A stretch of 64,000 bases of DNA from Rickettsiales bacterium (lineage in GTDB: Bacteria; Pseudomonadota; Alphaproteobacteria; Rickettsiales; UBA3002). Below are positions 25,452-26,862 of this stretch, piece after piece. Below the pieces are notes generated by a model that was not told the origin of the DNA, ran no database searches, and saw only the letters and a program-made list of their open reading frames with translations. Position numbers and translations under genes: made by a program. Position 1 is the stretch's first letter, and each line of letters begins with the position of its first letter. The DNA lies in contig JBIIEL010000003.1 in assembly GCA_044237845.1 (NCBI GenBank), positions 32,925 to 96,924 of the forward strand. The letters run 5' to 3'.

Positions 25452-26804
25452 TTAGTAGCGTGTCCAGCTTTTGGTGTTCACGCCGCGTGATTCTAGTTGT
25501 TTGTCGAGCGTGCTTCCTTCGAGGAAGAGATCATCTTTTGATGTCTGCAGCATTGCTTTCTTCAGATCAGCGATGATGTCATTCACTTTAGGATCGTTCT
25601 TCAGCTTGGCACCCACGGAGTTGATATAAGCCTGCTCATTCGCTGTAATCGCAGGAGTATGCTCTGCTGCCAACATACGCAGATGTGCGTGATATAGCGC
25701 GTCGGTTTTTGGAACGGTATAGCCATTTGGTCGATTGGGAATAAATATACATTGGCCGTTAGCGTCTAAACGTATGGGCTCGGCGCGCATGGTGCCATGA
25801 TCAAGGCTTATTGATGCCAAAATAGCGGAGCCTTTGATTGGCGTTTTGGGATCAAGGTAATAGTTGGCAAAATCAGCAATTACCTCTTCTGTGGCTTCTG
25901 ATACCAGTAAGCTTGCTCCTGGGATAACAGCAAATTCTGCGGCAATATTTGCGGTTGTGCCTGCAACAAACGTACCTCCTGCGCCTGCAAAATCACCGTC
26001 AGCAAGACGCGCTACAACGCCTACCAATGTGCCAACTTCGGAAACAATGATGCCCACAATGGGTATGTTTCGTCCTGCGATCGAAATAGTTTTTCCATAT
26101 CCAATAAAACGCCCTACTTTCTCGCCTAACTCAGTGGTGACTTCCCCGGCGGCGGTTTTGGCGAGCGATTTGAGCGCAGGCTTGAAGAGGCCAAGTTGTG
26201 TGGCAGCCACCAATCCGGCCTGCGAAGAGTGAATCGCTGCCTCAGAAAAATTGCCGCTTTCAAACTCTTCCATCGCTTTTCTACCAAGGCCTGCGACGAG
26301 AATAGGTGAAATTATTTTTCCTTTTGTTAGTTTTGCGTAATCCGCGCCAACTAGGACTTTTCCATCGGCAGAAATTTTCTTCAAGGTAATTTCGATAGAT
26401 TTTAGTGCACTACCGACAACGCCTCCATTCAGCATTGGCGCTTGCCTTTGTGCGGGATCCCGTGATTGCAAATGGTCATCTACAATAGCTAAATTTTCAA
26501 GCATGGTGGCTGTTTGATCAAAAACCACATGCAGTTCTTTTTTAAGATCGCTGACAGAAGCAGGATGTTTAGGATCATGCGGCGCTGTTCTTGCGCGAAC
26601 CCAAGCGGCTTGCATCATCTCCGATAGACGGACAGCGCTAACATTGCCCTCTTTGGCCAAATCAAGCAGTGATTGGTAGAAGCCACTACGAATATCAAAC
26701 AGGTTTTGGATTTCATTATAGGTGGTGGCTCTATCGAGAGATGCCGTAACGCGCGTGATTATTGCGCGTACTTCGGAGGGGAAGGTGGTTGTTGTTTTTC
26801 CCAT
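25452..26804 (-). CDS. Hypothetical 450-aa protein with a central Gly/Ala/Val-rich hydrophobic block (orphan, regulon member I)
   Basis: No signal peptide and no known domain. The central block reads IGYGKTISIAGRNIPIVGIIVSEVGTLVGVVARLADGDFAGAGGTFVAGTTANIAAEFAVIPGASLLV. The gene is clearly AT-richer (24/60 G+C in one hand-counted line). It interrupts the dnaG-rpoD pair on the opposite strand. Confidence 0.6.
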   Translation of the reverse strand: MGKTTTTFPSEVRAIITRVTASLDRATTYNEIQNLFDIRSGFYQSLLDLAKEGNVSAVRLSEMMQAAWVRARTAPHDPKHPASVSDLKKELHVVFDQTATMLENLAIVDDHLQSRDPAQRQAPMLNGGVVGSALKSIEITLKKISADGKVLVGADYAKLTKGKIISPILVAGLGRKAMEEFESGNFSEAAIHSSQAGLVAATQLGLFKPALKSLAKTAAGEVTTELGEKVGRFIGYGKTISIAGRNIPIVGIIVSEVGTLVGVVARLADGDFAGAGGTFVAGTTANIAAEFAVIPGASLLVSEATEEVIADFANYYLDPKTPIKGSAILASISLDHGTMRAEPIRLDANGQCIFIPNRPNGYTVPKTDALYHAHLRMLAAEHTPAITANEQAYINSVGAKLKNDPKVNDIIADLKKAMLQTSKDDLFLEGSTLDKQLESRGVNTKSWTRY

Positions 26805-26819
26805 TGTTTTTATACCCTA

Positions 26820-26862
26820 ACTATAACTGTAGTATAGCACAGGATTGTTAAGGTTTTGTTAC
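26820..26862 (-). promoter_or_regulatory. Direct-repeat box + -10 (instance I, degenerate) upstream of 25452..26804
   Basis: The minus strand reads cGTAACAAAACCTTAACAAT, then 20 nt, then TATAGTTAGGGTAtaAAAACaATG. The 5' UTR is nearly identical to that of instance G. Confidence 0.45.

Follow-up and report, generated by a model that had tools for sequence, protein, structure and literature searches.

An antisense accessory gene between dnaG and rpoD of an uncultured alphaproteobacterium encodes a protein with a hydrophobic hairpin and a C-terminal module common to a second protein family

We analyzed a stretch of 64,000 nucleotides (nt) from contig JBIIEL010000003.1 of a Rickettsiales bacterium (the window), in which a gene for a protein of 450 amino acids (aa) is located between dnaG and rpoD on the strand opposite to both (Table 1). 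Public assemblies contain gene calls for this contig, and their precomputed Pfam domains confirmed the identities of dnaG and rpoD. dnaG ends at position 25447 and the stop codon of the 450-aa open reading frame (ORF) occupies positions 25452 to 25454, i.e., the stop-to-stop distance is 4 nt, and the ORF list confirmed the position and orientation proposed in an earlier reading made from the letters alone (the sequence-only reading). The two genes converge without a terminator-like structure between their stops, the sole stem at this junction being a 5-bp CCCGC/GCGGG within the 3' end of dnaG; consequently, the convergent transcripts should overlap. That reading had relied on the adjacency of dnaG and rpoD as a rule, and indeed rpoD followed dnaG on the same strand in 67 of the 67 alphaproteobacterial loci having both genes (loci fetched through DnaG). 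The median gap was 81 nt, room for an ORF of at least 150 aa was present in only 5 of these 67 loci, and the gap in the window, with 1554 nt, was the largest. As in the macromolecular-synthesis operon, dnaG and rpoD are co-directional and still neighbours, but a 1.46-kb antisense cassette is positioned between them. The 450-aa gene is a genuine accessory gene that is confined to one clade of uncultured alphaproteobacteria.

An exhaustive phmmer (HMMER) search over 1.84 billion representative proteins found eight proteins. One of them, P0002 (466 aa), is a full-length homologue with 45% identity (E value, 7e-98); P0004 and P0003 are two fragments representing a split homologue at the related loci L083 and L084, and P0005 to P0008 are four proteins of 400 to 500 aa that match residues ~345 to 449 at most, with the core of the common module starting at residue ~380. 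The identical 450-aa protein was called in two metagenome samples (JGI 3300059473 and SRR27428700). A word-indexed search of 5.8 billion proteins returned only the protein itself and, when performed with an alignment of the C-terminal module (C-module), no match, which indicates that this search is insensitive for the case. The designation as an orphan is thus no longer tenable, given the full-length P0002, the split homologue at L083/L084, and a C-module common to about eight other proteins. The gene family is very rare in public data, with three members of the hairpin type and about eight of a second type with an invariant cysteine (Cys type, see below), and it is absent from the curated libraries searched; a metagenome scan for further module-bearing loci yielded one additional partial Cys-type gene only.

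With a G+C content of 0.477 (0.424 at third codon positions [GC3]), the 450-aa ORF is the lowest-GC gene of the window. The remainder of the window has 0.571, and dnaG and rpoD have GC3 values of 0.75 and 0.66, respectively; the compositional difference from the flanks, previously counted by hand in a single line, therefore extends to the entire gene. We consider it effectively refuted that the reading frame is a chance ORF in an AT-rich spacer rather than a gene. Its database annotation says no more than "hypothetical protein," as would be expected for such an ORF, but the frame is intact over 450 codons at the above-mentioned identity in P0002, conservation is domain specific, the module is shared at an hhalign E value of 1.5e-20, and the G+C content by codon position is 0.57/0.43/0.42.

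The comparison with related genomes revealed that the slot between dnaG and rpoD is variable. L002 is the closest relative (DnaG identity, 91%) and aligns colinearly with the window; blastn homology at 94 to 95% identity ends at position 25449, two bases beyond the dnaG stop, and restarts at 26910. In the corresponding slot of L002, unrelated DNA of ~830 bp contains an antisense ORF of 235 aa. Hence, a single-gene cassette with its own promoter was exchanged between 95%-identical flanks, and because L002 carries an unrelated antisense gene at this place, the sequence comparison marks the gap as a cassette hot spot. The cassette of the window holds one gene only, with no adjacent immunity gene. 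Short empty gaps are present in L003, L005, L011, L012, and L015. The slot of L004 is occupied by a pilin-like gene, and that of L008 (positions 11918-13173) by a 181-aa ORF together with an apparent nucleotidyltransferase/HEPN (DUF86-like) toxin-antitoxin pair, annotated by eye. A prepilin N-terminal methylation motif was seen in several proteins of 255 to 370 aa, encoded in the window at 11462-12292(-), 13007-13960(-), and 44760-45872(-), in L004 at 12016-12783, and in L092 at 1055-1852; the genes at 11462-12292 and 13007-13960 have a G+C content of ~0.50, one of these proteins fills the L004 slot, and another adjoins the module-bearing P0005.

In L083 and L084 (DnaG ~72% identical), a homologue of the 450-aa gene is located in the same slot and in the same orientation, its stop overlapping that of dnaG. 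This copy is broken up into a pair of overlapping ORFs (P0004 and P0003), and an out-of-frame internal deletion has removed residues ~185 to 300, including the hydrophobic hairpin. In the DnaG distance tree, (((window, L002), L003), L083), L083 branches outside the group formed by the window, L002, and L003; since its copy shares slot and orientation, the 450-aa gene is probably not a recent insertion despite its composition, contrary to the initial assumption. The simplest history would be that the gene is ancestral to the group and was lost in L003, replaced in L002, and truncated in L083. Relatives with the same gene at the same position and a backbone-like composition had been named as evidence against the sequence-only reading; the same position was found in L083, whereas the composition of that copy is still slightly AT shifted (0.52-0.54 versus 0.57).

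A recently acquired foreign or selfish gene without an integrated host role, such as a mobile-element remnant, a fragment of a phage tape-measure gene, or the toxin of a toxin-antitoxin pair, appears improbable. The low G+C content and the toxin-antitoxin-like pair seen by eye in the slot of L008 would be in line with such an origin, and residues 186 to 297 gave a weak match to the PHROG tape-measure family phrog_4704 (E value, 0.002; 17.8 bits). This match was rejected as compositional, since the region is compositionally biased and P0002 gives none. Moreover, the same-slot homologue at ~72% DnaG identity argues against recent acquisition, as do the promoter, which is of the type found in the host clade, the absence of significant flanking repeats around the cassette and of integrase genes at the locus (the sole tRNA is located at position 40989), and a tblastn search against plasmids and phages that gave no match.

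Downstream of the cassette, the conserved block in front of rpoD likely contains the promoter of rpoD itself. A consensus scan of positions 26863 to 27001 detected no strong sigma-70 promoter for rpoD; a candidate found by eye within the conserved block reads TTGATT-N17-CATAAG. The N-terminal extension of RpoD (27002-27600, plus strand) comprises ~190 Lys/Ala/Pro-rich residues with five tandem PAGKA repeats, and relatives have similar extensions. At another site of L002 (5669-6855, corresponding to window positions 20368-20397), two additional single-gene cassettes are located between cyaY and the PBP1A gene, one preceded by a TCAC box as described below and the other by a perfect TTAAT-N6-TTAAC-N10-TATAAT box. 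The 24-nt sequence ATAGCCCCNTAAACTTCGCGTGAC, for which the window has a single copy (20398-20421), follows each of the two cassettes, and the arrangement looks like a tandem insertion with target duplication.

The 450-aa protein combines a predicted helical N-terminal part, a hydrophobic hairpin rich in Gly, Ala, Val, and Ile, and the C-module. Kyte-Doolittle maxima over 19 residues were found at residues 247 to 265 (2.16) and 283 to 301 (1.35), within two hydrophobic stretches (residues 247 to 267 and 279 to 302) that are connected by the loop ADGDFAGAGG. Small residues (Gly/Ala/Ser) line faces along both stretches, and Glu, Arg, and Asp residues within the hairpin are conserved. This block is present as quoted in the sequence-only reading and is the best-conserved part of the protein, whereas the pore-forming or membrane-inserting role suggested for it found no support from homology or fold and is putative. 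The first 230 residues contain no hydrophobic segment by the Kyte-Doolittle criterion and hence no Sec-type signal, in agreement with the earlier statement that a signal peptide is absent. Identity to P0002 is 60 to 70% in the hairpin, 67% in residues 151 to 180, 60% in the C-terminal tail, and ~20 to 30% elsewhere, and this uneven pattern indicates a constrained protein. AlphaFold2, run with the 5-sequence alignment A2, modelled only residues 10 to 110 with moderate confidence (helical; predicted local distance difference test [pLDDT], 63 to 85), values being below 50 elsewhere. A Pfam search at E values up to 10 gave no match to HBL, ClyA, Gly-zipper_Omp, Gly-zipper_YMGG, Rick_17kDa_Anti, or colicin families.

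As the main alternative to the explanation favoured below, the protein might be an endogenous inner-membrane protein, with the hairpin forming two transmembrane helices and both large domains located in the cytoplasm, that acts in the organism's own CtrA-timed envelope or polar development and whose C-module binds a common cytoplasmic partner, which would also be bound by the soluble Cys-domain proteins. Basic residues (K, R, R) flank the hairpin on its N-terminal side, as would be expected next to the cytoplasm, but the C-terminal flank is strongly acidic, and conserved charges inside hydrophobic stretches are unusual for a plain anchor. In CtrA regulons, genes for motility, pili, and division of the cell itself predominate (PMC7200025, PMC9437464), in line with such a protein, whereas its extremely narrow distribution is atypical of a developmental component, and the gene is dispensable or exchangeable, being absent from L003, replaced in L002, and without its core in L083. 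On balance, we regard this explanation as possible rather than probable.

The C-module forms the extreme C-terminus in every member and ends with ...T(K/Q)xW(T/V)R. It also occurs in a second family (P0005 to P0008, P0011, and P0012) with a different N-terminal body, so that the same C-terminal domain is found on unrelated N-terminal bodies, as determined by hhalign and alignments. When A2 was compared with the alignment A4 using hhalign, only the last 69 columns aligned (probability, 99.3%; E value, 1.5e-20), and BLASTP matches in the C-module had E values of 6e-20 for P0005 and 1e-09 for P0011. An NCBIfam match to DedD (E value, 0.029) was not accepted, because it would place a SPOR domain at this position; SPOR domains do not have an all-helical fold, whereas the C-module is modelled as helical. 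The P0011 protein was found in exactly the two metagenome samples that contain the 450-aa gene, and for this reason one organism very probably encodes both the hairpin and the Cys-type architecture.

The AlphaFold2 model of P0011 (pLDDT, 78; predicted template-modelling score, 0.72) features an α/β N-domain in which strand 3 is followed by His-Gly and strand 4 by an invariant Cys; in P0008, the His is replaced by Asp. A fold search with P0011 gave weak matches to caspase-3 and caspase-6 with template-modelling scores of 0.32 to 0.37, which are not significant, and the N-domain of the second family may be clan-CD/caspase-like, which is no more than a lead. Interpretation of the hairpin as a degenerate caspase-like core, considered due to BLASTP matches (E values, 0.13 to 0.43) to the Cys-containing strand region of P0005/P0011, was rejected, as profile-profile comparison gave no support. 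Members of the Cys-type family occupy recurring slots, i.e., beside mdh, between a TetR gene and hsp33, after an SLT gene, and beside ccmC, and the family members in general are mostly single genes among housekeeping genes at several different slots.

The promoter of the 450-aa gene reads GTAA-N7-TTAAC-N10-TATACT, both half-sites being TAAC where a recurrent box of the window has TCAC. This recurrent box (the regulon box) is a tandem direct repeat, TTGTCACAAAAC(C/T)(T/G)TCACA, with (G/T)TCA(C/T) half-sites and an 11-bp period, located 20 to 21 nt before a TATAxT-like -10 element. The sequence-only reading had postulated such a regulon, and the box is real: eight sites are present in the window versus 0.44 expected, a number reached in 0 of 100 shuffles. 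The composite pattern of the promoter upstream of the 450-aa gene was found once in the window versus 0.00 expected and, in 1.5 Mb of examined sequence (both strands), at nine places, eight of which are upstream of family genes and represent four independent promoters, the remaining one being unrelated. The boxes of P0002 and the L083 copy are perfect TTAA-N7-TTAAC with the N10 geometry and spacers unrelated to that of the 450-aa gene, so that the TTAA-N7-TTAA(C) box is conserved in orthologous promoters; for P0012, the geometry is kept with weaker half-sites. Since P0002, the L083 copy, P0008, and P0011 are all preceded by the same architecture, the half-site changes are not random decay. [quoted passage not shown] Control of the family by CtrA, with direct binding of the regulator to these boxes as predicted from the motif, is most likely.

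Kinship with the promoter and leader of the gene at position 56352, as claimed before, was borne out as well. The upstream regions of the two genes are identical in 46 of 71 positions (65%), including the spacer element AAAACC, a match count that was not reached by any of 2,000 shuffles in ungapped comparison, and they contain the only two copies of the 13-mer TATAGTTAGGGTA in the window. The gene might therefore belong to the TCAC-box regulon through a drifted operator bound by an OmpR-family regulator, as for the SLT, peptidoglycan-binding, and small Gly-rich membrane proteins, and its likeness to CtrA sites would then be coincidental. The AAAACC and TATAGTTAGGGTA elements fit such a drift, as does TATAGT, a hexamer placed 20 nt behind the box in agreement with the geometry of the regulon; in addition, both the slot gene of L002 and the module-bearing P0005 have good TCAC boxes. 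With the position weight matrix of the regulon box, the site scores 19.2 bits, a value never reached in 20 window shuffles, compared to 27 to 34 for the eight bona fide sites; it is not among the regulon-box sites at up to one mismatch, even though TATAGT is present at the proper distance. However, the same C-to-A change occurred in both half-sites, TATACT is placed at exactly N10 in this promoter too, the boxes of P0002 and L083 are perfect and contain unrelated spacers, and P0008 and P0011 show the same architecture at other sites; drift of a TCAC operator thus seems rather unlikely to us. Of the original description as a degenerate regulon box, the relationship to the 56352 promoter and the TATAGT at N20 hold, whereas the TAAC half-sites with TATACT at N10 are of the CtrA type, as in the homologues. 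The promoter of the window copy may be best described as a hybrid, with CtrA as the presumed regulator, that is also readable with the geometry of the regulon box (TATAGT at N20).

TABLE 1 Coordinates of the features discussed in this work (positions refer to the window unless a related locus is named)
Feature	Position	Strand	Description
450-aa protein-coding ORF (stop codon counted)	25452..26804	minus	ORF list; ATG start
dnaG, 624-aa call	23573..25447	plus	Pfam Zn_ribbon_DnaG, DNAG_N, and Toprim on called gene
rpoD, long Lys/Ala/Pro-rich N-terminal extension	27002..29464	plus	Pfam Sigma70 r1_1 through r4 on called gene; ORF translation
Variable cassette (gene plus own promoter), replaced in closest relative	25450..26909		blastn versus L002
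N-terminal part, ~aa 1-230, predicted helical	26115..26804	minus	Homologous to P0002 and P0004
Gly/Ala/Val/Ile-rich hydrophobic hairpin, aa 245-302	25899..26072	minus	Kyte-Doolittle; conservation versus P0002
C-terminal module, ~68 aa (aa 382-450)	25455..25661	minus	Common to second protein family; hhalign, BLASTP
CtrA-type direct-repeat box GTAACAAAACCTTAAC	26847..26862	minus	TTAA-N7-TTAAC with one mismatch; also readable as TCAC-box variant
-10-like hexamer TATACT	26831..26836	minus	10 nt after box; geometry common to family promoters
TATAGTTAGGGTA	26813..26825	minus	Second -10-like hexamer TATAGT, 20 nt after box, plus leader start
Conserved block upstream of rpoD	26910..27001	plus	95% identical to L002
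Promoter of P0002			TTAACTATTTTTTAAC-N10-TATTCT
Promoter of L083 copy			TTAACCATTCGTTAAC-N10-TATAAT
Promoter of P0008 (Cys-type protein, other chromosomal site)			TTAACGATGCATTAAT-N10-TATGCT; TTAA-N7-TTAAT
Promoter of P0011			TTAATATTATTTTAAC-N10-TATAAT; read only after pattern was fixed
Cys-type family member P0011	L091 487-1839		
Cys-type family member	L086 10001-11293		
Cys-type family member	L088 10001-11383		
Cys-type family member	L092 2021-3529		
Regulon box	4565-4580	minus	Downstream gene 3826-4512; no family match
Regulon box	31676-31691	plus	Downstream gene 31725-32426; SLT lytic transglycosylase
Regulon box	36991-37006	plus	Downstream gene 37097-39001; peptidoglycan-binding protein (PG_binding_1)
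Regulon box	50310-50325	plus	Downstream gene 50373-50921; no family match
Regulon box	50953-50968	plus	Downstream gene 51032-51250; small ORF
Regulon box	51349-51364	plus	Downstream gene 51442-52071; no family match
Regulon box	56293-56308	plus	Downstream gene 56352-56927; Gly-rich membrane protein
Regulon box	57524-57539	plus	Downstream gene 57603-58109; Gly-rich membrane protein

The genes behind regulon boxes are mostly AT shifted and mostly without a Pfam match, and the SLT and PG_binding_1 proteins among them lack a signal peptide. The box recurs in related genomes, including the region upstream of the L002 slot gene, and it is similar to the Pho box of E. coli. Read in reverse complement, the regulon box includes the CenR motif TGA-N8-TGA (PMC9275681). 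Four small proteins (168 to 195 aa) without a Pfam match, all with long Gly-rich hydrophobic segments of the glycine-zipper type, are encoded in the region 56352-58666 (plus strand); two of the genes are located behind regulon boxes, and the first is the one that shares promoter and leader with the 450-aa gene. A perfect palindromic TTAAC-N6-GTTAA site of the CtrA type is located at 51393-51409 in the leader of 51442-52071, downstream of the TCAC box and -10 element of this gene, which suggests dual control or repression.

Based on these results, we tentatively favour the view that the 450-aa protein is a CtrA-timed, membrane-inserting accessory protein whose C-module serves as a common handle for export, targeting, or partner binding, and that it is possibly exported; we consider this view plausible rather than probable. 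Transcription would start from the gene's own promoter within the cassette, where a CtrA motif overlies the -35 region, (T/G)TAA-N7-TTAA(C/T)-N10-TAxxxT, and CtrA would turn on expression along with the motile or dispersal programme. The organism is flagellated, as flgI and a gene for a rod-binding protein are present in the window. The hairpin is predicted to enter the lipid bilayer and would represent the business end of the protein, whereas the C-module would give differently armed proteins one fate, be it export, targeting, or binding of one partner. The 450-aa protein would then be a candidate for an exported membrane-active effector with a presumed target.

Several known systems offer parallels to such a protein. 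Like ClyA, Hbl, Nhe, and MakA (e.g., V. cholerae MakA and E. coli ClyA/HlyE), it has a size in the range of ~300 to 450 aa and is predicted to be mostly α-helical, and with ClyA and MakA it has in common the absence of a Sec signal and a single internal Gly/Ala-rich hydrophobic, putatively membrane-inserting element. Expression of the ClyA/MakA group is tied to the motility programme, as proposed here for the 450-aa gene, and export of MakA goes through the flagellar channel. The best match of the C-module profile in the PDB was the C-terminal helix region of MakA, with a nonsignificant E value of ~2 that is a lead only. In contrast to these toxins, no significant similarity was present in sequence, profile, or fold, and the C-module also occurs on α/β proteins that are not toxin-like, so that the parallel concerns a possible mode of action and not membership. 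Modular effectors such as the Xanthomonas X-Tfe with XVIPCD and the Bartonella Beps with BID plus tail likewise carry an extreme C-terminal domain on unrelated N-domains and are encoded by singly scattered genes, and the neighbouring regulon includes SLT and peptidoglycan-binding proteins without signal peptides; unlike in these systems, the module is only ~68 aa long, helical, and without Pfam similarity, its likeness to XVIPCD/BID being one of architecture, and neither VirD4/type IV secretion genes in the examined sequence nor adjacent immunity genes were seen. Bilobed-hairpin proteins, i.e., chlamydial Inc proteins, colicin-type hairpins, and glycine-zipper proteins, resemble the 450-aa protein in having two hydrophobic stretches of ~20 aa with a short loop, a small-residue (Gly/Ala/Ser) face on each stretch, and flanking domains that would both be on one side of the membrane, but they differ in that the 450-aa protein has no Pfam Gly-zipper or colicin match, contains conserved Glu, Arg, and Asp, and lacks a type III secretion context. 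Finally, the promoter corresponds to CtrA-activated alphaproteobacterial promoters in having TTAA-N7-TTAAC upstream of the -10 element with conservation across homologues (PMC7200025, PMC9437464), although in the window copy the first position is G, and spacer and leader are similar to those of the clade's TCAC-box promoters. By analogy, the gene may be described as a regulon-controlled, clade-specific, effector-like accessory gene in a hot-spot slot, which would work like the known groups while sequence and fold do not place it in any of them.

The following points weigh against the proposed role as a CtrA-timed and possibly exported membrane-inserting protein. With respect to regulation, the box of the 450-aa gene has a mismatch (G for T at the first position), and this, together with the 65% identity to a regulon-box promoter, makes the responsible regulator ambiguous. 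P0005 has a TCAC box as its promoter and P0007 has no clear box, no ctrA gene was found in the examined sequence, and the window contains no canonical CtrA target as a positive control. With respect to the protein, the hydrophobicity of the second stretch is only moderate, and Glu is located inside both stretches. The AlphaFold2 model reached a mean pLDDT of 46, with the core not modelled with confidence; Foldseek against the PDB using this model gave nothing significant (best E value, 0.59), output that is uninformative at such a pLDDT. Neither sequence nor profile searches of the PDB, for which the family profile, the core, and the C-module served as queries, gave a significant match, and Pfam, NCBIfam, and PADLOC gave nothing meaningful for the 450-aa protein; over all searches (Pfam, NCBIfam, PADLOC, PDB, Foldseek, and hhalign), homology or fold support for a toxin, pore-former, or effector family was not obtained. 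The comparison of A2 with E. coli ClyA by hhalign had a probability of 0.5%, and its sole aligned segment, located on the Gly/Ala-rich hydrophobic β-tongue of ClyA, is a lead only. In the P0011 model, the C-module is an integrated three-helix element packed into the body, which would be as compatible with a role in structure or partner binding as with an export signal. None of the family members has a secretion system, chaperone, or immunity gene beside it, and secretion-system genes were absent from the ~45 annotated genes of the window, about a dozen window ORFs being unscanned. This lack of a secretion apparatus or immunity gene in every context and the integrated C-module of P0011 agree with the endogenous inner-membrane protein outlined above, which is nearly as likely as the favoured explanation. 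An even broader interpretation, which we consider unlikely, would regard the ~68-aa C-module as an undescribed export or targeting signal defining a set of CtrA-timed modular effectors with interchangeable payloads (hairpin or caspase-like Cys domain), encoded by single-gene cassettes at hot spots of a possibly predatory or host-associated clade.

If the protein should turn out to be an ordinary membrane protein, the 450-aa gene would represent a well-documented, clade-restricted accessory gene of modest interest. The locus illustrates that even the highly conserved dnaG-rpoD junction can serve as a swap site for self-promoted single-gene cassettes. If the favoured explanation is true, CtrA, the master regulator of cell cycle and motility, would be tied to lineage-specific, modular, and possibly exported proteins of an uncultured clade, and the short C-terminal module together with the compact promoter signature could be used for mining further members.

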